Below, in pieces: positions 1 through 12,043 of a stretch of DNA of 64,000 nucleotides. The notes under the pieces were generated by a model, which was not told where the DNA came from, ran no database searches, and worked only from the letters and a program-made list of their open reading frames with translations. This DNA is from a virus (Duplodnaviria; Heunggongvirae; Uroviricota; Caudoviricetes), in the IMG/VR virus record IMGVR_UViG_3300032205_000001, positions 44,218 through 108,217 of that record, one strand, 5' to 3'. Every line of letters begins with the position of its first letter. Position 1 is the first letter of the stretch. The position numbers and the translations under genes were made by a program.

Positions 1-57
1 AACCGCCTCAGCCTGTGGTGCAGTTGGTTATCGAACCGCCTCAGCCTGTGATGCGGT
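1..57 (+). repeat. 22-nt direct repeat (AACCGCCTCAGCCTGTGgTGC / ...GaTGC), 33-nt period
   Basis: Encodes an EPPQPV peptide repeat at the start of ORF 15..458. Confidence 0.5.
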
Positions 58-458: not shown

Positions 459-467
459 AGCGGCAGC

Positions 468-503
468 GCGCAAGCGCTTGCGTTGGAAAACTCAAGAGTT
501 TTC
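468..503. terminator. tandem hairpins between convergent genes: CGCAAGCGCTTGCG palindrome plus GGAAAACTC-AA-GAGTTTTC
   Basis: Perfect inverted repeats. Confidence 0.55.
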
Positions 504-591
504 TAAACAACAGAAGGTCCCGCCGACCTGAGCCTGCTGAACACAACGACGGAATTGCCTTTGTGAGCCCAAGCCGACGGGACATCCCATC

Positions 592-1002
592 CTAGCTACA
601 ATCGATGGGGGTGTACATTCCAGACGAGTAGCGCCCGGACTGATACTCCACGCTCTTGCGCGGCATGGCCACGAGCCGCTCTTCACCGAATTCGCCTTGC
701 ATCTTGCCGATTTCGATGACGTAACCGTAGTCATAGGACTGCGGAGCGCGCGTGCGCAGAAGCTTGTAATCCGCCGTGATGTCTTCGATGAGGTGCGGCG
801 GGTCACCCACAAGCGAGCGCAGATACTGCTCTGCCACGAAGAATTTGGCGCTCGTCGTCGATAGAGGCGGCGAGATGTAGAACCCATCACGACGAGCAAG
901 GTCGCCAGCTTCATCGTAGAACCGACGAGCCGCATCGCTGCTACGTTCGATGAGAGCATCGAATTGCTTGATTGGAATCTTGAATTGGACGATTCGGAAC
1001 AT
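592..1002 (-). CDS. hypothetical protein (136 aa)
   Basis: ORF track; start codon abuts the divergent cassette at 1000-1073; convergent with the 15..458 gene over shared hairpins. Confidence 0.5.
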   Translation of the reverse strand: MFRIVQFKIPIKQFDALIERSSDAARRFYDEAGDLARRDGFYISPPLSTTSAKFFVAEQYLRSLVGDPPHLIEDITADYKLLRTRAPQSYDYGYVIEIGKMQGEFGEERLVAMPRKSVEYQSGRYSSGMYTPIDCS

Positions 1003-1073
1003 GCTCTTACTACCGTCGGCGTGGCCAACGATTTCACGAAAGATTTGAGGTTTGCGGTTGTAGTGAGAGCATG
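1000..1073. promoter_or_regulatory. divergent promoter/operator cassette, copy 1 (CAT-N6-ACTAC...TTCACGAAAGA...GGTTGTAGT-N6-ATG)
   Basis: Shared architecture with copies at 2158, 2806, 3667, 5143, 7234, 8574 and 9478. Confidence 0.5.
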
Positions 1074-1328
1074 CCCAGAACCCTCAAAGAACTTGCGAAG
1101 GAAGCGCTCGATGTCCAGGATGCCTGCAACCTATCGGGTGTGGCCCATGGGTTTGCTCGGGCGATGACAGACCTCGGCGAGCACACGAACGGCACGGACG
1201 CACGCAACAAGCATCCCGTGGCCGTGCTTTGGGCGGATAAGATCGCTCATCTCACGGGCACGCAAGACCTCGGCAACGACGTCACGACGAAGGCCTACTC
1301 GTGGGCCTACGATCTGCTCAAGACCTAG
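1071..1328 (+). CDS. hypothetical protein (85 aa)
   Basis: ATG 6 nt after the GGTTGTAGT cassette half-site; ends before the palindrome at 1393-1413. Confidence 0.45.
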   Translation: MPRTLKELAKEALDVQDACNLSGVAHGFARAMTDLGEHTNGTDARNKHPVAVLWADKIAHLTGTQDLGNDVTTKAYSWAYDLLKT

Positions 1329-1392
1329 ACTTGTGGTCGCCGTGTCTTCGGCGGGCAATCGGGCCACAGAGGTGACCCGGCCACTCATATAA

Positions 1393-1413
1393 GAGAAAAC
1401 TCCAGAGTTTTCC
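1393..1413. terminator. GAGAAAACTC-CA-GAGTTTTCC palindromic hairpin
   Basis: Between convergent genes 1071..1328 (+) and 1543..2160 (-). Confidence 0.55.
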
Positions 1414-1542
1414 GTTTAGGTTCCTGAGGAGTGGTAGCCCTCCTCAGGTTCAAATCGCTGGCCACCCAACGGCGTGTGATGTGCAGCGCTTTGCTATGCA
1501 CACGCTCACAGAGCCCGGTTTTATCACCCGGGGCACGTCAAC

Positions 1543-2160
1543 TTAGGCGGCGTCGCCTTTCGACCACTGGCGAAGCTCGCCGAGCCGCTCACGCTTGCGA
1601 ACCGTCCAACCTTCGAGGATACGGCACGACTCCTCGCAGGCCGAGATGATAGCCAAATCCTTTTCGGACTTGCCCCGGCCGCTCATCTTCGGCAGGTCGC
1701 AGAAGTGAACCGGGGGCCAGTAGCCGAGCGCGATGAATGCCTCGGCGATTTCCCACGAAAGGTCCATCCCTCCGCCCGTGAGTGCGATTCCGGTTTCGCC
1801 GTCGTCGAACTCGACCACGCACAGAGGCAAGTGCGCCAGCTTGAGCGCAGCCTCGGCGCAGTCGTCGATACGCACGGGGTACCAGTACGACATCATCGGG
1901 CCCTCGGGATACATCGTACCCCGGCACGTGTTCGGGACTTCGAGCGTTTCGCCGTCGATTTCCTCTTCGACGTCCGCGAGCATGTCACGGCACTCGCACT
2001 CACCGAAGGACGAGCACACCACGGTGCGCTTGCACTCGGGGCACTCGAACGCTTCGAACACCTGGTAACCGTCGCAGTTCTCGCCGATGCGCTCCTGCCA
2101 GTCGATGGTCTGGGGCTTCATCTCCACCGCATCACAGTTCAGTCGGTCGATGTTCAGCAT
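1543..2160 (-). CDS. Cys-rich hypothetical protein (205 aa, begins MLNIDRL)
   Basis: The track ORF 1543..2250 is trimmed to the ATG at 2160 that abuts the cassette (CAT-N6-ACTACAA); CxxC pairs present. Confidence 0.5.
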   Translation of the reverse strand: MLNIDRLNCDAVEMKPQTIDWQERIGENCDGYQVFEAFECPECKRTVVCSSFGECECRDMLADVEEEIDGETLEVPNTCRGTMYPEGPMMSYWYPVRIDDCAEAALKLAHLPLCVVEFDDGETGIALTGGGMDLSWEIAEAFIALGYWPPVHFCDLPKMSGRGKSEKDLAIISACEESCRILEGWTVRKRERLGELRQWSKGDAA

Positions 2161-2222
2161 GGTTTGACTACAATCCTCGTTGGTGCGTTTTTCAGAAAAA
2201 CAGAGGTTCGATGGTTGTAGTG
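2158..2222. promoter_or_regulatory. divergent cassette, copy 2; the right half drives the tRNA-like element
   Basis: GACTACAAtcc...TTTTCAGAAAAA...GGTTGTAGTG. Confidence 0.5.
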
Positions 2223-2264
2223 TGGGTGTGGCTTGGTGCGTACGAGGCATCAGCCCTCTCGAAG

Positions 2265-2332
2265 TAGTAGACGCTGGCTGGCGTTGAATCTGACAGAGGC
2301 CTCGTATCAGGGTTCGATTCCCTGCTTACTAT
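2265..2332 (+). ncRNA. tRNA-like non-coding element (acceptor-like stem plus perfect T-arm CAGGG-TTCGATT-CCCTG); not a canonical tRNA
   Basis: GGTTCGATTCC T-loop with a 5-bp T-stem; a 6/7-bp acceptor-like pairing TAGTAGA/CTTACTA; no anticodon or D arm can be folded; driven by the right half of the cassette at 2158-2222 and ended by the palindrome at 2334-2352. Confidence 0.25.
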
Positions 2333-2333
2333 A

Positions 2334-2352
2334 GAAAACTCAAGAGTTTTCC
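2334..2352. terminator. GAAAACTC-AA-GAGTTTTCC palindromic hairpin
   Basis: Ends the tRNA-like transcript and the 3' end of the leftward gene 2362..2808. Confidence 0.5.
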
Positions 2353-2361
2353 ACTAAGGGC

Positions 2362-2808
2362 TCACGCCCACGCGATGAGCCTGTCGCCAGCCTTCTCGCA
2401 GACCTTGAGCATCTGCTCGGTGATTTGCCGAAGGCGGCCATCGGGGCGGCCACCCATGATCACGCGCGGACCCGTGGGGCCCTTGAAGTCCTCGAACGAA
2501 GTACCGGCATCATGGTTGCGCGCTTCGTTCCAGAGGCGACGACGGCACAGAGCCGCTAGCTCGGTGGCCTTGATTTGGCCCATGGGCGCAGAGACGAGCC
2601 CAACCCAACGCATCCAATCACCTGCATTCTGACTGTGCAGGTTGACCGAAACGTCCGTGCAGTTCTCGCACGTGAACATCTCGGGCGAGTCCTCACCCTT
2701 TTCCGAAGCGATGTCACAGGCATCGCACCAGCGTTCGCTGCAATCACAGCGATACACGTAGCGCGTTCCACCCTCGACCTCGACTGCGATGTAGAAGTCC
2801 ACGCTCAT
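2362..2808 (-). CDS. Cys-rich hypothetical protein (148 aa)
   Basis: The long track ORF 2362..3396 is trimmed to Met197 (ATG at 2808) directly adjoining the cassette at 2806-2880. Confidence 0.5.
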   Translation of the reverse strand: MSVDFYIAVEVEGGTRYVYRCDCSERWCDACDIASEKGEDSPEMFTCENCTDVSVNLHSQNAGDWMRWVGLVSAPMGQIKATELAALCRRRLWNEARNHDAGTSFEDFKGPTGPRVIMGGRPDGRLRQITEQMLKVCEKAGDRLIAWA

Positions 2809-2880
2809 GCTCGTACTACAAGGAACGAATCTCGGATTTTCAGAGAAAATGCAGGCTGCCTCGGTTGTAGTGCAGGCATG
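2806..2880. promoter_or_regulatory. divergent cassette, copy 3
   Basis: CAT-gctcgt-ACTACAAgg...TTTTCAGAGAAAA...GGTTGTAGT-gcaggc-ATG. Confidence 0.55.
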
Positions 2881-3441
2881 GGCGTCTACATCTACACGAT
2901 GCGCACGAAGACCCTGCCACTCAACGTGCTTGGCACGGGAACGGTCCAGGCGAACCTCTATAGCTTCGCCTACCGTTACACGAGCTATTGGAAGGGAGAC
3001 AGGGGATACAACAGCTACAACCTGATGTGCAGCAACGCTCATCGTCATGCACACGATGCGTTCGCCAAAGATCGGAGCGGCTACGTCATCGTGGGTGACC
3101 TCGACGATGGGAAGCTGAAGCTGGAAGGGCACAACGTCTACAGGAACGTGCGGGAAGCCATCTGGACGGATACAGAGCGCTTTCCCGGTGAACTCGTGGG
3201 ATGGGTCGGGGTGCAAGGAAAAGGCTTGTACCTCGCAAAGCAGACGCCATGGCGCAACGTGCAGACGCTCGAAGGAGACACGTGGATTGCCAAGCGCCAG
3301 CGCAGTGTGATGGATGCGCTCGGACAGGTGACGATCGAGGAGATCGTCGGCGATGATGTTCGGCGTGTGTGCCATTGCTGCGAGAACAATCCACACACCG
3401 AAGGCTGCCCATACAAAGAGTATCTCAACCTGCGGGCGTAG
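2878..3441 (+). CDS. hypothetical protein (187 aa)
   Basis: In frame with track ORF 2575..3441; ATG at 2878 lies 6 nt after GGTTGTAGT; TAG stop, then hairpin 3431-3448 and palindrome 3451-3469. Confidence 0.5.
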   Translation: MGVYIYTMRTKTLPLNVLGTGTVQANLYSFAYRYTSYWKGDRGYNSYNLMCSNAHRHAHDAFAKDRSGYVIVGDLDDGKLKLEGHNVYRNVREAIWTDTERFPGELVGWVGVQGKGLYLAKQTPWRNVQTLEGDTWIAKRQRSVMDALGQVTIEEIVGDDVRRVCHCCENNPHTEGCPYKEYLNLRA

Positions 3442-3469
3442 CCCCGCAAGGGAAAACTCAAGAGTTTTC
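3431..3469. terminator. TGCGGGC-gta-GCCCCGCA hairpin plus GGAAAACTC-AA-GAGTTTTC
   Basis: Between convergent genes. Confidence 0.55.
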
Positions 3470-3480
3470 TACTGCATGCC

Positions 3481-3669
3481 CTAGCGGGCGGTGAACTCAC
3501 CACTCGCTACTTCGGGTGCTGTACGGATGACAGGCTCCGGCATCTCGCCGTCCCATCCCAGATACAGCTGCGCCGCAATCACCAACATGCGAGGCTGCTC
3601 GGTAACCGGCTGCTCGTATGCCAGAAGGTTGGCAACGCGGCGAACATCCTGATTGAATGTGTCCAGCAT
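3481..3669 (-). CDS. hypothetical protein (62 aa)
   Basis: ORF track; start abuts the cassette at 3667-3741. Confidence 0.35.
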   Translation of the reverse strand: MLDTFNQDVRRVANLLAYEQPVTEQPRMLVIAAQLYLGWDGEMPEPVIRTAPEVASGEFTAR

Positions 3670-3741
3670 GGTTCTACTACCGAAGAGAATCCTCTGAATT
3701 TCAGTGAAAAGCCAACGCCCCTAACCTGTAGTGAAGGCATG
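3667..3741. promoter_or_regulatory. divergent cassette, copy 4
   Basis: ACTACcg...AATTTCAGTGAAAA...TGTAGTgaaggcATG. Confidence 0.5.
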
Positions 3742-4158
3742 AGCAACGAAACCCAACAGCCGAAACTGATCAACATCCTGTCCATCGACGCGTGGGCCGA
3801 CGGTGAGGACGGTTGGAACTGGAACATGTGGACGAAGGTCGGCACGTGCGACGTGTCCCTCTGCGACAAGCCCGAGGCTGAAATCCTCGCGTTTCTCGTG
3901 GCGTGGGATTTCCTCACGGAGAAAGCGCTGACCTCGTGCTACGTCGAAGATGATCAGTACAACATGGTCATCTGCGACAAGGAAACGCATCAGCCCCTTT
4001 TCGCGTTGGAGTACGGCGCACTTCAGGATGTGCCCGATAACCAGCCTCCTCCGGGCTCGTGGGCTGATGTGGCTCGGATGATGGCAGCTACCAGCGACGA
4101 TCCCTCGATCGACTGGGATGCGTGGAAAGATGAGATGAAAGAATCTGACCTGGATTAA
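3739..4158 (+). CDS. acidic hypothetical protein (139 aa)
   Basis: ORF track; cassette-driven; followed by a 10-bp hairpin at 4164-4186. Confidence 0.5.
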   Translation: MSNETQQPKLINILSIDAWADGEDGWNWNMWTKVGTCDVSLCDKPEAEILAFLVAWDFLTEKALTSCYVEDDQYNMVICDKETHQPLFALEYGALQDVPDNQPPPGSWADVARMMAATSDDPSIDWDAWKDEMKESDLD

Positions 4159-4163
4159 CCAAG

Positions 4164-4245
4164 GAATCTCACAGCTTGTGAGATTCTTACGATTGCCCGT
4201 GAGTTTTCCTTGGTGCGCCGACATATAAGCCGGTCGCCGGCTAAA
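4164..4245. terminator. 10-bp hairpin GAATCTCACA-gct-TGTGAGATTC, an orphan GAGTTTTCC half-site (4201-4209) and a GCCGG-tcg-CCGGC hairpin
   Basis: Between convergent genes 3739..4158 and 4251..4817. Confidence 0.5.
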
Positions 4246-4250
4246 ACCCG

Positions 4251-4817
4251 CTAGCCTCGGTTGGCCCACGCCGCTTCGAGCGCCTCGTGATACTTCGGGT
4301 CGACGTGCTCTTTCATGCCCTGAAGGTCATCGCCGAAGAAACCAAAGCACGAATCTTCGTGCTCCTCTTCGTGGACCTTCGAGCCACACTCGCCGCAATC
4401 GTGCGTTGACTCGATGGTGAATCCCCACACGTTGCCCGTGAGGAAATCATCGTAGATTTTTACTTCGCTCTTGAGCACAGCCTCGGCAGTCTCGCGAATC
4501 TTCTTTGTGATGCGCTTGACCATGTAGCACTTACGAATCGCCTCGGGCGTGGCCACGATGTAGCCGACCTGCCCTGAATCCCACGGGCAACCAAACGAGC
4601 CCGTGCTCATGGTGATGCCCGAGTGATCGTAGAGATACAGAGGGAGCACGATGCTGCCCTTGGGCGCATTCTCCTTCAGCCACTCTTGCGGGTCTTGCTT
4701 GGGCTGCACGTCACCGAGGTTATAGCGACGGTGCCAGCAAGCCATCACGCCGAGGTTATCCCATTCGCGTGGTGAGCCAGGGTCGGTGTCTTGAATGACT
4801 TTGACGATGATGCTCAT
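4251..4817 (-). CDS. hypothetical protein (188 aa)
   Basis: ORF track; start abuts a half cassette at 4815-4860. Confidence 0.5.
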   Translation of the reverse strand: MSIIVKVIQDTDPGSPREWDNLGVMACWHRRYNLGDVQPKQDPQEWLKENAPKGSIVLPLYLYDHSGITMSTGSFGCPWDSGQVGYIVATPEAIRKCYMVKRITKKIRETAEAVLKSEVKIYDDFLTGNVWGFTIESTHDCGECGSKVHEEEHEDSCFGFFGDDLQGMKEHVDPKYHEALEAAWANRG

Positions 4818-4860
4818 GGTCGTACTACAACTAGCCGAGGTTTGTTTTTCAGGATTTCTG
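4815..4860 (-). promoter_or_regulatory. half cassette (left half plus centre) upstream of gene 4251..4817
   Basis: CAT-ggtcgt-ACTACAAct...TTTTTCAGGATTTC; no right half, palindrome 4879-4899 follows. Confidence 0.45.
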
Positions 4861-4878
4861 AGGTTTGCTGCACACGAA

Positions 4879-4899
4879 TAGAAAACTCAAGAGTTTTCC
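4879..4899. terminator. GAAAACTC-AA-GAGTTTTCC hairpin downstream of the hicA-like gene
   Basis: Perfect inverted repeat. Confidence 0.5.
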
Positions 4900-4935
4900 G
4901 TTCTCTGGACTGGGGCTGCTGAGGACCCCTAGCCT

Positions 4936-5145
4936 CTAGGCAGCGAGGATTGTCTTCAGCATGCGCCGTGCGACGTTACGGCCCATGCGCTTGCCCCCTG
5001 GGATGGTGATCGTCGGCGAGCCCGGTTTGCTCATGACGATGTGAGAACCCTTGCCCCGACCGGGGAGCACTTCGTAGCCGTTCTCTTTTGCGAGATCGAC
5101 TAGATCCCTCGGTGTTGCCGTGTGGACTGAGATCGTTTTGCTCAT
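4936..5145 (-). CDS. HicA-like (YcfA family) putative mRNA-interferase toxin domain protein (69 aa)
   Basis: KGSH..PG..TIP..G..R.ILK pattern typical of the HicA fold; the start abuts the cassette at 5143-5216; no HicB-like partner seen. Confidence 0.45.
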   Translation of the reverse strand: MSKTISVHTATPRDLVDLAKENGYEVLPGRGKGSHIVMSKPGSPTITIPGGKRMGRNVARRMLKTILAA

Positions 5146-5216
5146 GCTCGCACTACAAGATCTCAGCTCGTCGTTTTCATGAAAAACAAAGCGTGCGAGG
5201 TTGTAGTCGAGACATG
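5143..5216. promoter_or_regulatory. divergent cassette, copy 6 (hicA-like gene on the left, 266-aa gene on the right)
   Basis: CAT-gctcgc-ACTACAAga...TTTTCATGAAAAA...GGTTGTAGT-cgagac-ATG. Confidence 0.55.
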
Positions 5217-6014
5217 CTGAATCGAACCATTGCCGGAATGCTCAAAGAGAACACGGGCTCGCATTTCCTCGATTCGGGGAGCGCGTACGGTCGCAATCAC
5301 GAGCGTAACCAGAAACGCACGTTCGAGAATGAGCCGGAGGCAACGGTCGATTTCAAGTATGGGGTTGAGGTGACGATCAACGTCTACCATTTCCTCAAGG
5401 ATCGGCTCACGCTTTCCACGGCGATGGATCGCAAGTTTCAGCGGTTCTGTAACCGCAAGGAGCACGCGAGCGAGACCTACTTTTCTCTCATCGATACGTG
5501 GCTCGCTACGTTCGATGAGGTTAGCGGCCTGTACGGCGAAGGTTCGCCGATGACCGTCAATACCTACAACGGCGAAGATCTGCTTTCCCAGGTCATTCAG
5601 TACACGCTGTTTCGCATCGATGACACCGATTACGTGGCTCTCATGATCCACGGTGGGTGCGATGTCCGTGGTGGCTACACTCGCCCGCGCATCTTCGAAG
5701 TGAACGGCGATGCTGCATGCATGTTCGATAACGCTCGTGCGTCGATCTACTGCACGCGCACGGGCAAGGTTCCCGGCCTGTTTGGTGAGATGGATGCGTG
5801 CGGTGCGTACTGGGACACGGAAAACGGCCACTCGTGGCACCGTGAAGGCAACTACGCCAGCGCTGGCGGTACGCAGCTTCAGGACTACGATCGCACCGAA
5901 GAGGAAAAGGGCGAGACCTGGGAAGCGGGCAAGCTTCACGTCCTGAAGGATGGATCGGCGCTTTGTCCGTGCTGCGGTGCGGCATTGGGCGTGAGCCACA
6001 TGGGCGGATACTGA
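5214..6014 (+). CDS. hypothetical protein (266 aa, begins MLNRTIAG, C-terminal CPCCG)
   Basis: In frame with track ORF 5088..6014 (Met43); ATG lies 6 nt after GGTTGTAGT of the cassette. Confidence 0.5.
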   Translation: MLNRTIAGMLKENTGSHFLDSGSAYGRNHERNQKRTFENEPEATVDFKYGVEVTINVYHFLKDRLTLSTAMDRKFQRFCNRKEHASETYFSLIDTWLATFDEVSGLYGEGSPMTVNTYNGEDLLSQVIQYTLFRIDDTDYVALMIHGGCDVRGGYTRPRIFEVNGDAACMFDNARASIYCTRTGKVPGLFGEMDACGAYWDTENGHSWHREGNYASAGGTQLQDYDRTEEEKGETWEAGKLHVLKDGSALCPCCGAALGVSHMGGY

Positions 6015-6093
6015 AACCTCCAAAGTTCCGAGGATTGTAGTTCTCGGATATTCCTTGGAATTTCAGAAAAGCGCAGCATCGGTGCGTATTTAG

Positions 6094-6131
6094 TTGACTT
6101 TGACAATGCGCTCTGATAGGTTGTGTACATG
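6094..6131 (+). promoter_or_regulatory. sigma-70-type leaderless promoter of the sigma-factor gene (TTGACT-N17-TAGGTT-N6-ATG) with an overlapping TTGACAAT box
   Basis: Same hexamer-N6-start geometry as seven other sites in the window. Confidence 0.45.
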
Positions 6132-6650
6132 CTGAATACGACGCACCAAGAAATCCTCGGGCTCCGCAACGAAATCCGCCGTGTGGTGGCGATGGTGTTG
6201 CGCACGTCGCGCTACTTCGCCGATGACCACATCGAAGAGTGCATGTCCGACGTCATGCTCCAGGCTTTCGACTACGGTGCGCGTACGTTCGATCCGAGCA
6301 AAGGCTCGGCGAAGTCTCATTTCACCACGTTCGCTAAGCACCGTGCCAAGAATTGGCTCAACCGGGCGTGCCGTCGGTTCGAAGTAGCCGACGAGTCTAC
6401 TACCGAGGACGGGGAGACTGTTTCTCACACGGCGAGCGTGCCGGCCGATGGAAACCCGGCGCTATCCCTCATGGCATCGCAAGAGCGTGCCCGGGTGCTC
6501 GCCGCAGTCGAGACCCTAGAAGACCGTGAGCGTGCGCTCGTACATGCGTTCCTTCGGCTGGGCTCGTGGATGCTCGCCGCAAAGGAAATCGGCGTTTCGC
6601 CGGCTACGGCTAGCCGAATGAAGGCCGATATCGTGGCGAAGCTTCGCTAG
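6129..6650 (+). CDS. ECF-like sigma-70 family sigma factor (region 2 + region 4 HTH)
   Basis: HFTTFAKHRAKNWLNR (region 2.x) and ERALVHAFLRLGSWMLAAKEIGVSPATASRMKADIVAKLR (region 4); TTGACT-N17-TAGGTT-N6-ATG promoter at 6094-6131. Confidence 0.7.
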   Translation: MLNTTHQEILGLRNEIRRVVAMVLRTSRYFADDHIEECMSDVMLQAFDYGARTFDPSKGSAKSHFTTFAKHRAKNWLNRACRRFEVADESTTEDGETVSHTASVPADGNPALSLMASQERARVLAAVETLEDRERALVHAFLRLGSWMLAAKEIGVSPATASRMKADIVAKLR

Positions 6651-6658
6651 GTAGGTCG

Positions 6659-6729
6659 GGCGCGCAAGCGCTTGCGCCGCTCACGGCCAACAGAAAACTC
6701 TTATTGAATGGGTCTAAGGGGAGTTTTCC
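6659..6729. terminator. GCGCAAGCGCTTGCGC palindrome plus split GAAAACTC-N20-GAGTTTTCC
   Basis: Between convergent genes 6129..6650 and 6739..7236. Confidence 0.5.
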
Positions 6730-6738
6730 CTTAGGGGC

Positions 6739-7236
6739 TCACAGCCCGAACGCTGCATCATCGAAGGTGCATTGCGAGCACTCGATGTCCGGGATTTCGA
6801 TCTCGAAGTCCCCGTGATCATCGAACCACGAGACACCGTGGCCCATGGCCTGCATTGCGAGGTAGTGGCCGAATTCCTCGGCGTCGAACCCATCCCGATC
6901 ACACTTCGCGCACTTGCTCTTGTGCTCGACGTCGGCTTGCTCGGCACGCTCGGCGAGCACATACACACTGACCTTGTTTGCCGCTTCCAGAGCGGCCCAC
7001 AGTTCGCCAGCGAGCGCGAAAGCAGCCGGCGGGGTCTGGGGTGCGTAGTCACTCCAATTCTCGCCAGCGCCCGGCCTAGGAAGGCTCAAGCGAGCCTTAC
7101 GCTCTGCCTTGGTTAGCTCGTTATCGGTCGAATGACCCTCTTCGACGAAATCGGCGTAAGCCGAAACGAAGAAAGCCTTCGCCGCAGCGAGTAGGAATTC
7201 ATCCTTGAAGATCGAGCTAGAGCCGATGTTCGTCAT
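6739..7236 (-). CDS. hypothetical protein (165 aa, acidic, CxxC pairs)
   Basis: Track ORF 6739..7527 trimmed to Met98 (ATG 7236) abutting the cassette at 7234-7308. Confidence 0.45.
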   Translation of the reverse strand: MTNIGSSSIFKDEFLLAAAKAFFVSAYADFVEEGHSTDNELTKAERKARLSLPRPGAGENWSDYAPQTPPAAFALAGELWAALEAANKVSVYVLAERAEQADVEHKSKCAKCDRDGFDAEEFGHYLAMQAMGHGVSWFDDHGDFEIEIPDIECSQCTFDDAAFGL

Positions 7237-7308
7237 GTTCGTACTACAACCATCGTGCGATTCGTTTTCTCTGAAAATTAGAGGATTGATGCTTGTAGTA
7301 CTGACATG
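7234..7308. promoter_or_regulatory. divergent cassette, copy 8
   Basis: CAT-gttcgt-ACTACAAcc...TTTTCTCTGAAAAT...TTGTAGTAC-tgac-ATG. Confidence 0.55.
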
Positions 7309-7599
7309 AGCAAAGCTGACGAACACATCCAGTACCATCTCACCATCCCCACGGGTCACATCCGACTCTTCACGATCCTCAGCGGCCTCAAGCTGGAGAT
7401 CAAGTTCCCGGGCATGCGCATGACCCGCAAGGCCCCGAAGTGCAGCACGATCCTCCGCCAGGAGTTCGGCCTCAGCGGCAAGCCGCAAAAGCTGTACGAT
7501 CAGTTCCTGGGGCTGCTCGTGAAGCATGGCGTGCCGCTCCCCGGCGAATACGTCAACCCCACGCCGCCGGCACCGACGACCGAGCCCGAGGTGAACTGA
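7306..7599 (+). CDS. hypothetical protein (97 aa)
   Basis: ORF track; cassette-driven; ends before the palindrome at 7631-7657. Confidence 0.4.
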   Translation: MSKADEHIQYHLTIPTGHIRLFTILSGLKLEIKFPGMRMTRKAPKCSTILRQEFGLSGKPQKLYDQFLGLLVKHGVPLPGEYVNPTPPAPTTEPEVN

Positions 7600-7630
7600 G
7601 AGCCCGGCGCTCCGGCGCCACCGGCCAACA

Positions 7631-7672
7631 GAAAACTCTTATGGCCTAGAGTTTTCCTCTATTGGCCTTGCG
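7631..7672. terminator. GAAAACTCT-tatggcct-AGAGTTTTCC hairpin plus GGCC-ttgc-GGCC
   Basis: Between convergent genes; GGCCTTGCGGCC recurs at 11357-11368. Confidence 0.5.
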
Positions 7673-7681
7673 GCCTGCTCC

Positions 7682-7864
7682 TTACTCGTCCCAGTAGTGG
7701 CGCGTTGCCGCGTCGTACTCCTGGTCAAGCTCGTGCTCGTCGAGGAGTTCAGCCTGCACGTTGCGAGCGCCACCCCTGGGCTGATTGCGGTGACGCATGT
7801 AACCGGCGTTGCGGTGCTGTGCCGCTACTGCAACCCCGGACCGTTTGTTGATGTATTTCGCCAT
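7682..7864 (-). CDS. hypothetical protein (60 aa)
   Basis: ORF track; start abuts a half cassette at 7862-7905. Confidence 0.35.
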   Translation of the reverse strand: MAKYINKRSGVAVAAQHRNAGYMRHRNQPRGGARNVQAELLDEHELDQEYDAATRHYWDE

Positions 7865-7905
7865 GGTGACACTACAACCGTGCGCATTGGGTTTTTCAGT
7901 CTACC
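7862..7905 (-). promoter_or_regulatory. half cassette upstream of gene 7682..7864
   Basis: CAT-ggtgac-ACTACAAcc...TTTTTCAGTCTACC. Confidence 0.4.
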
Positions 7906-8257
7906 CGAGCGGATTGGTTTTGCCACCACAACACGGGCCACCAATGGGCCAGTAGTCGCACGTCCAGCCTAGCCGCTCGTGGTCGATGGATGAATGGTGG
8001 CAGTGACCGTGCCCATTGGCTTGGTTTGCCTCGCATTCCTCGTGGTGCGCCTTCAACTTGCGCCGATGGATGATTTCGCAATAGCGATGGTTCACGTACT
8101 GAAGCATCGCAGCGAGGATCCGATCACCCTTTGTGATGGTGCCCGTCCATTGCTTGATCTCCAATTCGCGCAATAGCTCTTCGTACTCTTCGGCTGTGAG
8201 ACAGATCGAAGAGTCGAAGTAGAGCCGGATCAATGGTTCAACTGGCTTATCCGCCAT
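7901..8257 (-). CDS. His/Cys-rich hypothetical protein (118 aa)
   Basis: Track ORF 7901..8443 trimmed to Met63 (MADKPVEP); 11-nt overlap with the upstream gene. Confidence 0.4.
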   Translation of the reverse strand: MADKPVEPLIRLYFDSSICLTAEEYEELLRELEIKQWTGTITKGDRILAAMLQYVNHRYCEIIHRRKLKAHHEECEANQANGHGHCHHSSIDHERLGWTCDYWPIGGPCCGGKTNPLG

Positions 8258-8576
8258 TGGACACCGGCCCGAGCACAGCAAAGCGGTGACGGCTACCACC
8301 GAGGTTGGAGCGGCAGCACGAGCACATGCGCCAGCTGAATTCGTTGATACCGTCGCCGGTTTCGGAGTCGAAGTCCGGCACGAGGTTGGGCCCGAGGCGT
8401 GCGAGACCAGCATCGATCTCAGCAGCGCGCTCCTTGGCGCCATCCCTCAGCTCGCCACGGCCCGGGGACTCACCCTTGCCATAGTGCTCGTCGATACCCG
8501 AGTAATCGCCGTTGACGGCAACGAACAGGCAATCCTGGCACAGTTGGAGGTCATCCATCACGACTTGCATCGCCAT
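8247..8576 (-). CDS. hypothetical protein (109 aa)
   Basis: Track ORF 8247..8843 trimmed to Met90; CAT-N6-ACTACAA at the cassette 8574-8648. Confidence 0.4.
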   Translation of the reverse strand: MAMQVVMDDLQLCQDCLFVAVNGDYSGIDEHYGKGESPGRGELRDGAKERAAEIDAGLARLGPNLVPDFDSETGDGINEFSWRMCSCCRSNLGGSRHRFAVLGPVSNGG

Positions 8577-8648
8577 GCCTGTACTACAACCGAGCAATCT
8601 CCAATTTTCAGAGAAAACGCGGACCGGGTTGGTTGTAGTCGAGGCATG
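8574..8648. promoter_or_regulatory. divergent cassette, copy 10
   Basis: CAT-gcctgt-ACTACAAcc...TTTTCAGAGAAAA...GGTTGTAGT-cgaggc-ATG. Confidence 0.55.
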
Positions 8649-8831
8649 CTGCACACATTCATCATCCTGTTTCTCAACACCCCAGGTCCGCACGTTCCGC
8701 ACAAGGTCGATCACAAGGCCGACATGCGCGTGAGCGAGCACATCATCGACTCGTCCAAGAATGGCGAGAACTCGCGCAAGCGGCAGCTCCACAGCATGTG
8801 GCGCGACGAGTACAAGCTGGCGCGGAAGTAA
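8646..8831 (+). CDS. hypothetical protein (61 aa, begins MLHTFII)
   Basis: In frame with track ORF 8286..8831 (Met121); ATG lies 6 nt after GGTTGTAGT. Confidence 0.35.
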   Translation: MLHTFIILFLNTPGPHVPHKVDHKADMRVSEHIIDSSKNGENSRKRQLHSMWRDEYKLARK

Positions 8832-8835
8832 TCCC

Positions 8836-9036
8836 ATGGCCAAGCGTAGCGATGCTCAAATCCTTCGGGACCTTCAGGGTGTGGAAAACGGGCTGAGTCC
8901 AGAGAACCTCTGGTGTGATGGGGAAGCGAGCCCGGCTTACGTGCGCAAGCGTGGCGCAGAACTGAGGCGCCAGCGTGCAGCTCTGATCAAAGAGCTAGGA
9001 CGTGAGCCCACTACATCCGAGCTGTATGGGTTTTGA
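8836..9036 (+). CDS. hypothetical protein (66 aa)
   Basis: In frame with track ORF 8761..9036 (Met26); followed by hairpin 9039-9058 and palindrome 9092-9111. Confidence 0.35.
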   Translation: MAKRSDAQILRDLQGVENGLSPENLWCDGEASPAYVRKRGAELRRQRAALIKELGREPTTSELYGF

Positions 9037-9038
9037 TC

Positions 9039-9111
9039 CCTGAGCTGAGTCGCTCAGGTAGATCTCGCACCGTGCTGTGAAGCCCTGTGACGGAAAACTC
9101 TAAGAGTTTTC
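9039..9111. terminator. CCTGAGC-tgagt-c-GCTCAGG hairpin plus GGAAAACTC-TAA-GAGTTTTC
   Basis: Between convergent genes 8836..9036 and 9202..9480. Confidence 0.5.
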
Positions 9112-9201
9112 TAAATACAATAGCTGATTGGATCTGGTGATCCTTCCGGCCTTGGTAGGCGGCTCAGCTGGCAGCTCTATATACAGATCGTGAGCCACCC
9201 A

Positions 9202-9480
9202 CTACGGTGCCGTCGCCACACCTTCGCTGCCATCGTCATAGGTGATTTTGTCGTACTCGCCGCACACCTTGAACTTGTCGAGAAACATCAGCTCGCCACG
9301 GTCCATCACCCATGGCTTGTAGGTGATCTCGGTGTCGAGTGGAACGTCGATCGACTCGGTGATCGCATCCAGATGGAGCGTATCGCCGTTCACGGTCAGC
9401 TTGCGCGCGAGGTGTCCCGTGTAAGCGCAGCGAATCTCGCAGCTCTTGTGCCCTGCCATCAGCGTGCGGAAGGTCATCAT
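9202..9480 (-). CDS. hypothetical protein (92 aa)
   Basis: ORF track; start abuts the cassette at 9478-9551. Confidence 0.45.
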   Translation of the reverse strand: MMTFRTLMAGHKSCEIRCAYTGHLARKLTVNGDTLHLDAITESIDVPLDTEITYKPWVMDRGELMFLDKFKVCGEYDKITYDDGSEGVATAP

Positions 9481-9551
9481 GGTCTGACTACAACCATCGA
9501 GCCCGTCGTTTTCACGAAAATCCCGAGGTTCGCGCTTGTAGTACGGACATG
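9478..9551. promoter_or_regulatory. divergent cassette, copy 11
   Basis: CAT-ggtctg-ACTACAAcc...TTTTCACGAAAAT...TTGTAGTAC-ggac-ATG. Confidence 0.55.
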
Positions 9552-9746
9552 CTGCAATTCGTTCTCACCATCAACGTCGAGGGGCTGTCCTACGCTGACG
9601 TGGCGAGTGCGCTACGTGCCACGGCTTCCCATCTCGCAGCTGGCCGCTACAGTGCGCTCATCGCCGAAGGCGGCGACTCTGGCCGCATCATGGCCGAGGA
9701 CAAAGAGACTCGCATTGGTGGCTGGCACATCACCGAGGACAAGTAG
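9549..9746 (+). CDS. hypothetical protein (65 aa, begins MLQFVLT)
   Basis: ORF track; cassette-driven. Confidence 0.4.
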   Translation: MLQFVLTINVEGLSYADVASALRATASHLAAGRYSALIAEGGDSGRIMAEDKETRIGGWHITEDK

Positions 9747-9748
9747 CC

Positions 9749-9928
9749 ATGTATCGCACGTTCAAGCGCAGCTGTACGGACTGGCAAAGCTTCGCCAGCG
9801 CTCGCAAGATGACGGTTGATACCCATCTCAGCTACGCGCAAGCGCTCGAAGCCTGCGAGCAATTCAACAACAATCGGACCCCGCGCCAGATTCGCAAGGG
9901 GACTAAGCTCGAATTCGAGCGCATGTAA
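9749..9928 (+). CDS. hypothetical protein (59 aa; below the ORF-track size cut-off)
   Basis: Manual ORF MYRTFKRSCTDWQSF...EFERM; starts 3 nt after the previous stop; followed by a 12-bp long-range hairpin and the perfect palindrome at 10012-10029. Confidence 0.35.
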   Translation: MYRTFKRSCTDWQSFASARKMTVDTHLSYAQALEACEQFNNNRTPRQIRKGTKLEFERM

Positions 9929-9933
9929 GTTAC

Positions 9934-10068
9934 GCCAGGCACGGGGCACGAACACACTGGAACGTCGATCGTGCGGCGCCCAGTGATGCCCGTGCCTGGC
10001 TCTATATAACGGAAAACTCTAGAGTTTTCTTTCTACTAATCAACTACTAGTTCCTACTAAATTAGTAG
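9934..10068. terminator. 12-bp long-range hairpin (GCCAGGCACGGG ... CCCGTGCCTGGC), perfect 18-nt palindrome GAAAACTCTAGAGTTTTC (10012-10029) and CTACTAA-a-TTAGTAG
   Basis: Between convergent genes 9749..9928 and 10073..10522. Confidence 0.55.
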
Positions 10069-10072
10069 CAGC

Positions 10073-10522
10073 CTACGAGTACAGCACCGTGATCGATGCG
10101 GCGTAGGGGTTCGGGCTGAACTCCAGCCGGAGGCTCTTGATCGAGCAGTGCTCCAGCTTCTGCAGGCGAGCGATAAGCCGCTCGGCGGCATGCTGCGCCA
10201 GTAGCTCGCACGAGAGCGTAGTGGGCTCGCTGGCGATGCGATCCATGAACACCCCGAGCATGGCCTGGTCGAAGAGAAAGCCCCGGGAATCGAGCTTAGG
10301 CTCGCACTCCACGCTGACGTTCCAGCGGACGGGAATTGCCTTGCGGCCACCGTCGACCCGAACGAGCTGATCAGCCGGACCACAGTGATTGGTGCCCGGG
10401 GTCACGATGAAATTCGACAGCCCAGCGCGCTGGATCGTCATCGTGCGGAGGGAGAGGGAGATCGTGCGCACGGGCGCAGCAACCGGCTTAACAACCTTCG
10501 TCGTCGTGTGTTGGTTCAGCAT
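10073..10522 (-). CDS. hypothetical protein (149 aa, begins MLNQHTT)
   Basis: ORF track; preceded on the minus strand by TTGACA-N17-TAAAAC-N8-ATG (10523-10559). Confidence 0.5.
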   Translation of the reverse strand: MLNQHTTTKVVKPVAAPVRTISLSLRTMTIQRAGLSNFIVTPGTNHCGPADQLVRVDGGRKAIPVRWNVSVECEPKLDSRGFLFDQAMLGVFMDRIASEPTTLSCELLAQHAAERLIARLQKLEHCSIKSLRLEFSPNPYAASITVLYS

Positions 10523-10559
10523 GACAACCGTTTTATCAGGTCATGCGGCGATTGTCAAG
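10523..10559 (-). promoter_or_regulatory. leaderless promoter CCTTGACAATCG-N17-TAAAAC-N8-ATG
   Basis: Reverse complement read of 10523-10562. Confidence 0.5.
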
Positions 10560-10566
10560 GTATCAT

Positions 10567-10791
10567 TTACTTGGAATCCCGAGGTTTCCTGATCATCCGT
10601 TTGGCGCTTGCGAGCCCGCACTCGAAGCATCGCCGGCATGGGTAGAGACTACAGATCGGCAGCACGGGAATTTCAGCCTGGAAAACTCTTCCACGTCGAT
10701 CTTCAGATCGGTAGTTAAACCAGGTGATCTCGAAGAGCGCCATCCACTCGGGATCGATCTTTAGCTCAAGCTTCTGTGAGGAGTTTTCCAT
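10567..10791 (-). CDS. possible small protein (74 aa)
   Basis: ORF track; its start overlaps a GAGTTTTCC half-site; sits inside a split palindrome (10689-10789); weak. Confidence 0.2.
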   Translation of the reverse strand: MENSSQKLELKIDPEWMALFEITWFNYRSEDRRGRVFQAEIPVLPICSLYPCRRCFECGLASAKRMIRKPRDSK

Positions 10792-10799
10792 AACGGGCC

Positions 10800-11225
10800 C
10801 TAGGCCGCGATGCCCTCGGCCGGTTCGTCCACGTCAGAGAGTGAGGTTCCGCTTTGCGCGGCAAGCCACACCTCGCGGGAGAGCTGTCCCTCGTCGATGA
10901 TCTCCCAGTAACGATAGCCCGATTCGGCTTCCCACTCCACGGCGATCATGCGCCCGGTGTAGCTCGACGGGGGCTCCGGGCGATACGCGTGGCTCGCTTC
11001 CCAGGCCGCACGATGCTCAGCCTCTTGAGCCCAGAAACGGGCCTCCTCGCCGCACTCGTCGCACGTGACGAGCATGCAACAGCACGGCGCATCCATCCAA
11101 AACGGTTGTAGATCGACGTCCCGGCCATTGTCGACCACGAGCGAAGCCTTACGGGCTGCGATCTCTGCGAGATACAGCTTGTGACCGACGTAGCGGCGGA
11201 AGCGCTTTCCGAAGGTGCGAGCCAT
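10800..11225 (-). CDS. hypothetical protein (141 aa)
   Basis: ORF track; start abuts a half cassette at 11223-11268. Confidence 0.45.
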   Translation of the reverse strand: MARTFGKRFRRYVGHKLYLAEIAARKASLVVDNGRDVDLQPFWMDAPCCCMLVTCDECGEEARFWAQEAEHRAAWEASHAYRPEPPSSYTGRMIAVEWEAESGYRYWEIIDEGQLSREVWLAAQSGTSLSDVDEPAEGIAA

Positions 11226-11268
11226 GCCTGTACTACAAGCCAGGGAGAAACGTTTTTCAGGGATTCGA
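11223..11268 (-). promoter_or_regulatory. half cassette upstream of gene 10800..11225
   Basis: CAT-gcctgt-ACTACAAgcc...TTTTTCAGGGATTC. Confidence 0.4.
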
Positions 11269-11305
11269 AGGATTCACAGATCGTGATCACGCCACAGGGG
11301 AAGAA

Positions 11306-11368
11306 GAAAACTCTAGAGTTTTCCACTCCCCAAAGCGCGCAAGCGCTTGCCCCGTAGGGCCTTGCGGC
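11306..11368. terminator. GAAAACTCTAGAGTTTTCC palindrome, GCAAGCGCTTGC palindrome and GGCCTTGCGGCC, downstream of the leftward sigma gene
   Basis: Perfect inverted repeats. Confidence 0.55.
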
Positions 11369-11905
11369 CTAGGCCTCGTCGGCGAGATCCGCCACGATGG
11401 CTTTCATCCGGCGGGTTGCCGTGGCAGGCGACCATCCGACGAGCGCTCCGGCCTCGGTCTGTCCCATGCCGTCCAGCATGGCGCCCACGAACGTACGAGC
11501 GTCCGAGTCGAGCGTATCGAGCGCAGTGGCAAGCCAAGCCATCTCCGACCGACGCTCGACATCGAGGCGACCATCGGGGCCCACGAACGAACCACACTCG
11601 GCCACGTTCGTGCCGAGGGTATCGACGAGCATGCTCGTGTTCCCCTCGTCGTCGGAAGCTTCCGACACGTGGCCATTGTTGGCGCTCGCCTTGCGCCAGT
11701 TACGAGCGGTATTGCTGGCGATACGGAGCGCCCACGACTCGAACGAACCACGGGACTCGTCGAAGGTTTCGACGGCCGACAGGATGCGCACAACCGCATC
11801 CGACACGATGTCATCGGTGGCCGACGTGGGGCCAATGGCCCGCTCGACGGCGCGCGACATGGACTTGAGTAGCTTCGCGTTCAGTGCAGCGTTGATGTTC
11901 AGCAT
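11369..11905 (-). CDS. ECF-like sigma-70 family sigma factor (paralogue of 6129..6650)
   Basis: FESWALRIASNTARNWRK (region 2) and ARTFVGAMLDGMGQTEAGALVGWSPATATRRMKAIVADL (region 4); promoter TTGACA-N17-GATAGT-N6-ATG at 11906-11940 on the minus strand. Confidence 0.7.
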   Translation of the reverse strand: MLNINAALNAKLLKSMSRAVERAIGPTSATDDIVSDAVVRILSAVETFDESRGSFESWALRIASNTARNWRKASANNGHVSEASDDEGNTSMLVDTLGTNVAECGSFVGPDGRLDVERRSEMAWLATALDTLDSDARTFVGAMLDGMGQTEAGALVGWSPATATRRMKAIVADLADEA

Positions 11906-12043
11906 GTAGAGACTATCTCATATCATCGCCCGATTGTCAAGCATTCCGAGCATACTCAAATACGCCATATTGCTCGAGAATCTAAGATTGTCGAGGTATC
12001 GACGGACCTTGACAATCGAGCGGGACCGTGCTACCTTCTGTCT
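11906..12043. promoter_or_regulatory. divergent control region: leftward TTGACA-N17-GATAGT-N6-ATG and rightward CCTTGACAATCG-N17-TACCTT-N6-ATG, with the imperfect inverted repeat GATTGTCgAGG-N10-CCtTGACAATC
   Basis: Read directly from the sequence; the inverted repeat overlaps the rightward -35. Confidence 0.55.

Follow-up and report, generated by a model that had tools for sequence, protein, structure and literature searches.

What is the role of a short palindrome that recurs, unchanged in sequence, behind one small gene after another? The question is raised by the first 12.5 kb of a 64,000-nucleotide stretch of Caudoviricetes DNA (IMG/VR record IMGVR_UViG_3300032205_000001, positions 44,218 to 108,217; the whole stretch is called the window and is numbered from 1). 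A hand-curated gene map, for which the reading frames of the window were checked, places about 27 small genes in this region. The palindrome consists of an A-rich arm (GGAAAACTC or AGAAAACTC) and a U-rich arm (GAGTTTTCC or GAGTTTTCT) on either side of a variable spacer. Given its position at gene ends, its absence from promoter junctions and its partnership with a conserved promoter system, the best-supported reading is that it marks the boundaries (3' ends) of phage transcription units as an element specific to one clade. The clade consists of uncultivated phages of about 200 kb, in which the element follows nearly every small early gene.

A palindrome conserved in sequence at gene 3' ends

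Exact copies of the 8-mers GAAAACTC (n = 14) and GAGTTTTC (n = 13) all fall within 486-12459, with none in the remaining 51 kb of the window, where permitting one mismatch revealed nothing convincing. A recurrent palindrome had been described in the initial annotation, and it proved real, far above chance and correctly placed at almost all coordinates: the 20-mer pattern GGAAAACTCNNGAGTTTTCC gave 7 matches with up to two mismatches (0.01 expected) and the 9-mer GAGTTTTCC gave 15 matches on both strands of the window (0.61 expected). The 8-mers form 12 inverted pairs and two lone half-sites (4201-4209 and 12452-12459), and within pairs the A-rich arm always comes first. The spacer is 2 nt long at 485-504, 1394-1413, 2333-2352, 3451-3470, 4880-4899, 10011-10030 and 11305-11324, and 3 nt long at 9092-9112; pairs with a 2- or 3-nt spacer are referred to as tight copies. 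Spacers of 10, 20, 34 and 92 nt separate the arms at 7630-7657, 6692-6729, 12364-12415 and 10680-10789, respectively, giving a range of 2-92 nt. Copies with such extra central sequence had been noticed before; they are real and common in relatives (10-92 nt). The 34-nt example had been measured correctly, whereas the one given as 83 nt spans 92 nt, its left half-site lying at 10680-10688 rather than 10689. The arms do recur as described, but the outermost position is non-complementary in all eight tight copies of the window (GG..CT or AG..CC); hence 8 bp of the arm are conserved rather than 9. As had been recognized, positions 10012-10029 form a perfectly palindromic inner 18-mer.

A census of the junctions in the window found a pair or half-site at 8 of 8 convergent junctions (one of them a variant hairpin plus half-site, 4159-4213) and the palindrome at 5 of the 7 head-to-tail junctions that have a real gap, whereas none of the 9 divergent (promoter) junctions carried it (convergent versus divergent, Fisher's exact p ~4e-5). 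The element lies 9-129 nt from the nearest stop codon, and 0 of 27 half-sites fall in a confident coding region. Thus, it marks gene 3' ends and is not confined to the convergent junctions to which it had first been assigned. Relatives also carry it in long head-to-tail arrays, typically 30-50 nt past the stop and 65-97 nt before the next start according to a rough gene-calling script.

None of 185,579 species-representative genomes (596 Gb) contained clustered copies. Single-copy matches numbered 98, with about 35 expected in this set at uniform base composition. Some 30 metagenome-assembled genomes (MAGs) of Gastranaerophilales/Melainabacteria (L145-L216) hold the same 20-mer once each, presumably a single orthologous site that is conserved among them and has no relation to the phage element. 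The only related genome match, L203 (CAZPUJ010000278.1, 4570 bp), is a phage-like contig in an uncultured Planctomycetaceae MAG and is 78-95% identical to IMGVR_UViG_3300037042_004723; its binning is the one, weak lead to a Planctomycetaceae host. Eighty other large phage contigs (1.53 Mb, retrieved via their CCA-adding enzyme) served as a control and contained 0 pairs and 50 half-sites, which is about chance. The motif is not equally frequent in coding regions or unrelated genomes, and its phage specificity supports the specific recognition that had been proposed initially. Neither megablast of positions 1-12500 nor tblastn of the module's sigma factor (see below) gave a match in 50,697 phage records, and cultured phages yielded no match.

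A scan of IMG/VR for the tight form returned 23 stretches, all but four of them single matches in unrelated contigs; the motif-bearing stretches were L006, L009 and L010 (two contigs of ~198 kb), L010 itself having one match. The relative IMGVR_UViG_3300037042_004723 has a G+C content of 0.61, contains both TTGTAGT and TTGACAAT promoters and encodes a sigma orthologue that is just 53% identical, together with at least three further paralogues. Ten more loci from groundwater, sediment and freshwater were found in a metagenome scan with a sigma alignment (sigma identity 44-56%, G+C 0.51-0.625), and the element was present in all of them. Related metagenomic phage contigs with the same arms number at least eight. 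When the window and related contigs were pooled (167.5 kb), 82 pairs were obtained; the inner 8 bp are unchanged throughout, with zero compensatory substitutions, and one extra copy has decayed. The arms are combined as GGAAAACTC/GAGTTTTCC in 31 of the 82 pairs, as GGAAAACTC/GAGTTTTCT in 29, as AGAAAACTC/GAGTTTTCC in 18 and as AGAAAACTC/GAGTTTTCT in 4. The order of A-arm then U-arm is nearly universal, about 80 cases standing against one conserved reversed site.

Contig L243 shows synteny with the window, the nucleotide identity being 70-80%. At orthologous junctions of the two, the arms are 100% identical while spacers and flanks diverge, and the copies within the window likewise share just the 20 bp and no common flanks. 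Relatives have kept the order of genes around the sigma gene only in part. In L024, about 25 copies punctuate a head-to-tail gene array laid out as stop, GC-rich hairpin, ~10 nt, palindrome (3-32-nt spacer), TTGACAAT or extracytoplasmic function (ECF)-type promoter and leaderless ATG. The L024 palindrome lies in intergenic cassettes of 86-185 bp with 60-88% identity (families D1-D5, 3-7 copies); D6 is a separate 41-nt family. Lone GAGTTTTCC arms in L009, L010 and L203 are mostly on the strand of the adjacent downstream promoter, and most have a G+C-rich inverted repeat 0-11 nt upstream, as judged by eye; in L243 lone arms were examined at three orthologous junctions only.

Promoters, sigma factors and individual junctions

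What the initial annotation overlooked is that the palindrome is one half of a promoter/terminator architecture that includes conserved leaderless promoters. The divergent junctions are filled by a back-to-back promoter, CAT-N5-ACTACAA-N13-TTTTC-N3-GAAAA-N13-TTGTAGT-N5-ATG. Its unit is the ECF-type promoter TGAAAAy-N13-TTGTAGT, and divergent pairs share the palindromic core TTTTC-N3-GAAAA. The window contains 16 exact copies of GAAAA-N15-YTGTAGT, all within 2167-11258, with 0 expected. Back-to-back pairs are found at 2167-2221 (in the form ACTACAA-N-TTTTC-N3-GAAAA-N-TTGTAGT), 2815-2871, 5152-5207, 7243-7299, 8583-8639 and 9487-9542, and single promoters at 3706-3732(+), 4824-4850(-), 7871-7897(-) and 11232-11258(-). 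Since TGTAGT lies 5-6 nt before ATG, the module mRNAs are predicted to be leaderless. The ECF-type promoter is present in all sigma-bearing relatives.

The second promoter type, TTGACAAT-N16/17-TAnnnn-N6/7-ATG, is sigma-70-like. Its 8-mer TTGACAAT occurs 16 times in the window against 1.9 expected, at 6100, 10551, 11933, 12009, 12339, 12551, 12649 and 12665 and further at 26168, 33010, 46631, 56703, 57157, 58076, 59936 and 63963. It appears to act as an extended sigma-70-like -35 element of leaderless genes, including both sigma genes. In relatives it forms inverted pairs (GCATTGTCAAG ... CCTTGACAATG) within repeated cassettes, and hence it may double as an operator. The g25 orthologues have different promoter classes, ECF-type in the window (11232-11258) and a TTGACAAT cassette in L024 (~10560-10640); the palindrome upstream of the g25 promoter is kept in both.

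An ECF-like sigma factor is encoded by g26 (11369-11905, minus strand; Sigma70_r2, 1.8e-11) and presumably recognizes the TTGTAGT promoters. Another gene (6129-6650, plus strand) is more weakly sigma-like. At least four ECF-like sigma paralogues lie within 20 kb of L024 (9902-10486, 12246-12803, 16528-17031 and 17675-18196); so many sigma genes are unusual for a phage and suggest a sigma cascade. The search for related loci with the second sigma-like protein found no relatives, and an exact look-up of the sigma protein showed that it is not on record. Pfam and PHROG scans of the module proteins recognized only the two sigma factors, a HicA-like protein and unnamed phage families, so that no candidate binding protein for the element could be named from them; searches of PDB sequences with the two best-conserved module proteins gave no meaningful match. 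The HicA-like mRNA-interferase toxin gene (4936-5145, minus strand; Pfam 1.2e-8) has its own phage promoter and no recognizable HicB antitoxin gene beside it. The sequence CATGCTGAA occurs six times (0.9 expected) and coincides with called gene starts (MLN...) at 2153, 5213, 6128, 10515 and 11898; the sixth copy, at 4955 inside g10, is probably incidental. The same ATGCTGAA start is also seen in relatives; it may serve leaderless translation as a downstream signal.

The convergent junctions can be followed along the window. At g1(+)/g2(-), the tight palindrome GGAAAACTC-AA-GAGTTTTCT (485-504) lies 26 nt past the g1 stop; a GC palindrome (468-483) is directly upstream of it, and g2 has its own hairpin with a U-rich tail at 515-529. 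The junction g3(+)/g4(-) holds AGAAAACTC-CA-GAGTTTTCC at 1394-1413. Ahead of this copy, the g4 3' untranslated region, 1414-1545(-), folds into several hairpins (z -3.2) and is far more structured than the palindrome itself. The copy at 3451-3470, between g6(+) and g7(-), is 9-10 nt from both stops. At the variant site between g8(+) and g9(-) (4159-4213), a different 10-bp hairpin (4163-4186) precedes the half-site GAGTTTTCC (4201-4209), and CCAAGGAA/TTCCTTGG bound the site on both sides. The pair with the 20-nt spacer (6692-6729) separates the sigma gene g12(+) from g13(-). In the pair with the 10-nt spacer (7630-7657), at g14(+)/g15(-), flanking GGCCAA/TTGGCC lengthens the stem (-19.1 kcal/mol, z -4.7); the orthologous L243 junction has a lone GAGTTTTCC arm only, with a GC hairpin before it. 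At g19(+)/g20(-) (9092-9112), the L243 orthologue keeps the arms with a different spacer, and a further tight copy is found at g22(+)/g23(-) (10011-10030).

The remaining copies lie elsewhere. The tight copy at 2333-2352 is 9 nt past the g5(-) stop and before the g4(-) promoter, and it also closes a short plus-strand unit driven from the promoter at 2195-2221. This promoter has the full phage consensus and is followed, up to the palindrome, by only a 19-codon GTG open reading frame (ORF) or an RNA of ~105 nt. The stretch 2195-2352(+) includes a T-loop-like GGTTCGATTCC, and a similar GGTTCAAATC is found near 1447; a tRNA-like RNA at 2228-2352 was rejected (fold z -0.8, ARAGORN and Rfam negative). 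Two head-to-tail copies on the minus strand lie between a stop and the next promoter, at 4880-4899 (g10 stop, g9 promoter) and 11305-11324 (stop of the sigma gene g26, g25 promoter). The first 20-mer is identical at the orthologous L243 junction, where the flanks have diverged; the second, with its flanks, folds at -17.7 kcal/mol. In the pair with arms 92 nt apart (10680-10789), read on the minus strand, the first arm starts 10 nt past the g25 stop and the second lies 4 nt upstream of an ECF-type promoter-like site (TGTAGT, 10648-10653). An ORF spanning this pair, 10567-10791(-), has weak coding statistics (G+C at third codon positions, GC3, 0.63).

A pair split by a structured 34-nt insert (12364-12415, z -3.6) lies 56 nt past the g27(+) stop in a 390-nt non-coding control region (12308-12699), and a lone GAAAACTC (12447-12466) sits in the loop of a GC hairpin, GCGCG..CGCGC. 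The three palindrome arms of this region are ordered L-R-L. The region further holds five TTGACAAT copies on both strands, an inverted pair ATTGTCAA-N8-TTGACAAT at 12649-12672 and an A/T-rich inverted repeat near 12580-12630. A comparable control region with reversed arm order (GAGTTTTCC-N8-GGAAAACTC) is conserved in six relatives. Reading GGAGTTTTCCATG as a Shine-Dalgarno sequence plus ATG was rejected, as it yields merely a 7-codon ORF at 12415.

Two companion palindromes reported in the initial annotation are present. The G/C palindrome GCGCAAGCGCTTGCGC, or GCGCAAGCGCTTGCG(T), is found at 468-483 (one mismatch), 6662-6677 (exact), 11337-11352 (one mismatch) and 58048-58063 (two mismatches), and GGCCTTGCGGCC at 7664 and 11358. 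The former is sequence-conserved in the same phage clade (for example L009 55, L243 9438 and L024 8797); in some cases it adjoins the A/T palindrome, in others it lies within its spacer, and it seems to be another standard component of the gene-end module.

A tRNA scan found no gene in the window. Rfam gave no match at the gathering threshold and one sub-threshold chance match at E<=1. Genes recognized in the rest of the window (18684-19463, 22021-22725, 22758-23357, 31572-32507, 33060-34028, 43205-44188, 54343-54891 and 60961-61650) encode a NADAR-domain protein, a CCA-adding tRNA nucleotidyltransferase, an NT5C nucleotidase, an SPFH/band-7 protein, a ParB/GmrSD_N-like protein (33060-34028), a peptidoglycan-binding-domain protein, a dihydrofolate reductase and a metallophosphatase. 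The CCA-adding enzyme is thus encoded in a window without a tRNA gene. The possibility that the palindromes are parS-like sites for the ParB-like protein was rejected on account of the wrong arm order and the absence from divergent junctions.

The proposed boundary element and its alternatives

According to the best-supported reading, the ~27 small, mostly orphan genes would work as divergent pairs, each fired from a shared back-to-back ECF-type promoter, a few genes being fired from sigma-70-like TTGACAAT promoters instead. The palindrome would be placed where transcripts should end, at every convergent junction and, in head-to-tail arrangements, between a stop and the next promoter. Once transcribed, its arms could base-pair to give a short hairpin rich in A:U, most often of the form GGAAAACUC-nn-GAGUUUUCU-WUUU, with the U-richer tail on the sense side. 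This hairpin might pause or terminate host RNA polymerase coming from either direction, whereby neighbouring units would be insulated and the meeting point of converging polymerases fixed. We regard RNA-level termination or pausing at the element as evenly balanced. Spacers of 2-92 nt together with a near-fixed arm order fit pairing in one transcript and not a dimer on duplex DNA; a dimeric operator was rejected because these spacers show no helical phasing. Both arms persist in one-directional arrays, which also favours pairing within one transcript.

Because the 8-nt arms are invariant across divergent phages despite the weak hairpin, the arm sequence itself is probably read, either by the polymerase as a pause/release signal or by a dedicated phage factor. 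A reconciling idea would be that GAGUUUUC(U/C) is a pause/release signal on whichever strand is transcribed and that the opposite arm is fixed as the same signal for the other direction. More tentatively, the arms may be the recognition code of a dedicated sequence-specific termination/insulation system of the whole clade, in which a phage factor reads the GAAAACUC/GAGUUUUC helix or a duplex half-site. Such a factor would stop host RNA polymerase after every early/middle unit, a punctuation orthogonal to host terminators and possibly switchable, and, as the arm resembles a -35 element, it may have a relationship with sigma region 4. The arm as a real -35 element was rejected, as no TGTAGT or other conserved motif lies downstream at promoter spacing.

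Several observations weigh against a terminating boundary element. Termination is suggested by position only. The stem has 8-9 bp with four consecutive A:U pairs, and the core hairpin of tight copies is weak (-5 to -10 kcal/mol) in a genome of 57% G+C. Flanks do not lengthen the stem (mean z 0.06 for 45 tight copies, exceptions being, for example, 11305 and 7630), so that flank extension of stems with a 2- or 3-nt spacer was rejected. The U4 run is paired inside the stem, as had been stated initially, and no regular U-tail follows; hence the canonical mechanism does not apply, and a consensus terminator scan did not call the element sites. Many genes already have a GC-rich hairpin between stop and palindrome, some with its own U-tail, and the palindrome may therefore serve something other than termination. 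The element is missing from two head-to-tail junctions of the window, and a divergent promoter region harbours at least one lone arm (L010 3666). It would be unusual for an RNA stem to be read by its sequence, and a protein binding 8-bp half-sites in duplex DNA explains the invariance, the lone half-sites and the indifference to spacing at least as naturally.

The strand asymmetry of the element was also considered. In the GG..CT orientation of the tight copies, the four bases that follow are T-rich, with 67-69% A/T, and the three preceding bases are A/T-rich as well. Where the downstream promoter shows the direction, GG..CU is the sense-strand reading of 8 of the 9 mismatched tight copies; against this, the bias at the ninth position is reversed in the long-spacer copies of L024 (A..C 5, G..T 1). 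It is too weak and inconsistent to decide between action on RNA and on DNA. Long spacers are modestly structured (mean z -1.0), with 0.90 stem-extending bp against 0.39 in shuffles.

Of the alternatives, a polar roadblock survives best, although we consider it rather unlikely. Here a monomeric DNA-binding protein of the phage would occupy each 8-9-bp arm as a half-site and halt polymerase arriving from one side, so that an inverted pair would act against polymerases from both sides. A relationship of this protein with sigma region 4 is conceivable, since arm GGAAAACTC resembles the -35 sequence TGAAAATCC: six of nine positions are identical, the other three being T/G, T/C and C/T. An absolutely invariant 8 bp with no compensatory change, no selection for hairpin stability or a longer stem, arms that stay intact even 20-90 nt apart, lone arms that are mostly oriented with transcription and A/T-rich flanks all agree with this explanation, and a monomeric repressor that ends elongation at numerous asymmetric sites provides a precedent (PMC9283540). 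However, if the half-sites were independent, the A-arm would not be expected to precede the U-arm almost universally, and in one-directional arrays the second arm would be needless, yet it is usually there. Spacer lengths show no helical phasing, and no candidate DNA-binding protein is found among the module proteins scanned, which are orphans.

It is more doubtful still that the element serves mRNA 3'-end processing or stability. Transcription would then stop elsewhere, at the GC hairpins or beyond, and the hairpin would be a recognition site at which an endoribonuclease, or a protective protein that binds RNA, defines or stabilizes the 3' ends of leaderless mRNAs. The consistent place in the 3' untranslated region after a separate GC-rich hairpin would suit such a site, as would the conserved stem sequence with a free loop, the A/U-rich single-stranded flanks and the HicA-like RNA-interferase gene in the module. 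Palindromes of the repetitive extragenic palindrome (REP) type in 3' regions can attenuate transcription and stabilize upstream mRNA (10.64898/2026.03.23.713779). Yet at -5 to -10 kcal/mol the hairpin would hardly hold back exonucleases, a task for which the adjacent GC hairpins are better suited, the symmetry in one-directional arrays is left unexplained, and no nuclease or binding protein can be linked to the element.

Improbable, too, is that the copies are ordinary intrinsic terminators whose identity stems from recombinational copying (concerted evolution of cassettes) instead of selection on sequence. Their main evolutionary role would then be that of homology patches for the shuffling of orphan-gene cassettes, as proposed for the promoter-early stem-loops (PeSLs) discussed below. 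The L024 palindrome does lie within 86-185-bp cassettes repeated 4-7 times at 60-88% identity, orthologous genes have different promoter classes in different phages, gene order near the sigma gene is only partly conserved, and the second palindrome GCGCAAGCGCTTGCGC is conserved likewise. Copying within a genome, however, cannot explain 100% arm identity across phages with ~50% protein identity, an 11-point difference in G+C and a diverged adjacent cassette. The window copies share only 20 bp and not their flanks, and canonical terminator features are lacking.

A miniature mobile palindromic element or a repeat of the REP or bacterial interspersed mosaic element (BIME) type spread into intergenic regions, as the initial annotation had considered, would match a short, extragenic, palindromic, multi-copy sequence, but is very improbable and already largely refuted: the flanks show no general target-site duplication (mean longest flanking direct repeat 4.1 nt versus 3.9 nt in shuffles), no genome among the 185,579 has multiple copies, divergent junctions and the other 51 kb of the window lack the element, which is present at orthologous junctions in diverged phages, and no transposase or RAYT (Y1 transposase) domain was found in the 40 window ORFs scanned against Pfam. 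One orthologous tight palindrome in three relatives (L240 12825, L243 4210 and L244 4283), which would favour mobility, is flanked by direct repeats of 8-9 nt (CCCTGTGTG, CTCTGTGTG and TGTAGATC); the downstream repeat copy overlaps a motif upstream of the -35 of the next promoter.

Relation to known systems and meaning for the clade

A canonical intrinsic terminator consists of a G/C-rich stem-loop and a U-tract of ~7-9 nt directly 3' of it, its structure being conserved by compensatory change. The palindrome resembles it in lying downstream of coding regions, as the junction census found, and in having an A-run 5' and a U-run 3' of the dyad, so that it reads alike on both strands. In contrast to it, the palindrome has no G/C-rich stem, its U-run is paired, a short W-U-U-U tail is found on one side only, and sequence is conserved without covariation (zero compensatory changes in 82 pairs). 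With a weak, A:U-rich stem, a paired U-run and no covariation, it is not a canonical intrinsic terminator, and the initial annotation was right to set it apart from generic terminators by the conservation of sequence rather than structure.

Phage terminator/promoter cassettes are already known; what is new is a variant in an uncharacterized clade of ~200-kb phages. The closest described system is the PeSL cassettes of T4-type phages, in which a tested stem-loop terminator and an early promoter lie between orphan genes (PMC2839356) and which have been proposed to drive modular shuffling (PMC2839356, PMC4122927). Both systems are repeated intergenic cassettes of a stem-loop and a host-type early promoter amid small orphan genes. 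The PeSL layout, a stem-loop and sigma-70-like promoter in one repeated cassette of ~100 bp, is found in L024 (~90-185 bp, with a leaderless start), whereas in the window it is seen only at the head-to-tail junctions 4880 and 11305, where the promoter is ECF-type. Concentration in a plastic orphan region is shared, all copies lying in 485-12466 amid almost no Pfam/PHROG matches and partial synteny. As for the recombination (indels, mini-circles) ascribed to PeSL cassettes, orthologues here have promoters of different classes, and the genes stand in shuffled order. PeSL stems are stable, G/C-rich (polyG/polyC) and terminate experimentally, whereas the present stem is A:U-rich and weak. Unlike PeSLs, it is invariant across distant phages, takes inserts of 2-92 nt and usually follows a separate GC hairpin. 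Terminators and promoters of the window further occupy separate (convergent versus divergent) junctions, and the promoters fall into two classes, one of them presumably recognized by an ECF-type sigma factor of the phage. Homology to T4-type phages was not seen, neither nucleotide nor sigma-protein matches being found in the 50,697 phage records.

For the convergent junctions, the bidirectional terminators of E. coli (Ju et al. 2019) are a good mechanistic analogue. They are described as hairpin-encoded pause sites that program polymerase collisions (10.1101/2022.10.23.513370). They are likewise symmetric hairpins between convergent genes that differ from intrinsic terminators (10.1101/2022.10.23.513370), but are not conserved in sequence, whereas the present element also occurs in one-directional arrays and as lone arms. 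Collisions thus cannot be its sole mode.

The stoperators of Cluster A mycobacteriophages are asymmetric sites of 13-14 bp bound by the immunity repressor of temperate phages (PMC9283540). They share with the element dozens of copies of one short conserved intergenic site and, putatively, an orientation with respect to transcription and a link to the stopping of elongation; the element, in contrast, consists mostly of inverted pairs, and its lone arms are mostly sense-oriented, with one in a divergent region. REPs are host-chromosomal, imperfect palindromes of 20-40 nt, with hundreds of copies per bacterial chromosome, and are linked to RAYT transposases. They have been reported as both terminators and stabilizers (10.64898/2026.03.23.713779). 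REP/BIME sequences and the element are both extragenic palindromes in 3' regions, yet the latter is phage-borne, is tied to a promoter architecture and has no counterpart in the genomes scanned. Miniature inverted-repeat transposable elements (MITEs) typically show target-site duplication and presence/absence polymorphism; here, apart from the one orthologous junction mentioned above, flanking direct repeats do not exceed the level of shuffles. A REP- or MITE-type repeat was rejected, as there are no host copies, no target-site duplications and no transposase in the scanned ORFs and the element is kept at orthologous junctions. An integron attC site, which has RYYYAAC and GTTRRRY cores around a variable centre behind promoterless cassettes and an integrase gene in the vicinity, was rejected as well: GGAAAAC does not fit RYYYAAC, though the arms end in AAC and begin with GTT, the cassettes here have their own promoters, and no integrase was found among the window ORFs scanned.

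The 18-20-mer together with TGAAAAy-N13-TTGTAGT provides a DNA signature for the clade in freshwater, groundwater and sediment metagenomes, and the same signature delimits the clade's early-gene module. Should the element be an ordinary terminator kept identical by cassette copying, it would be of smaller value, as a second, independent PeSL-like example outside the T4 group. If it is a sequence-specific transcript-end signal, these phages would punctuate dense, bidirectional, leaderless genes without relying on hairpin stability, and, with the matching compact ECF-type promoters, the module might be a ready-made orthogonal promoter/terminator toolkit.

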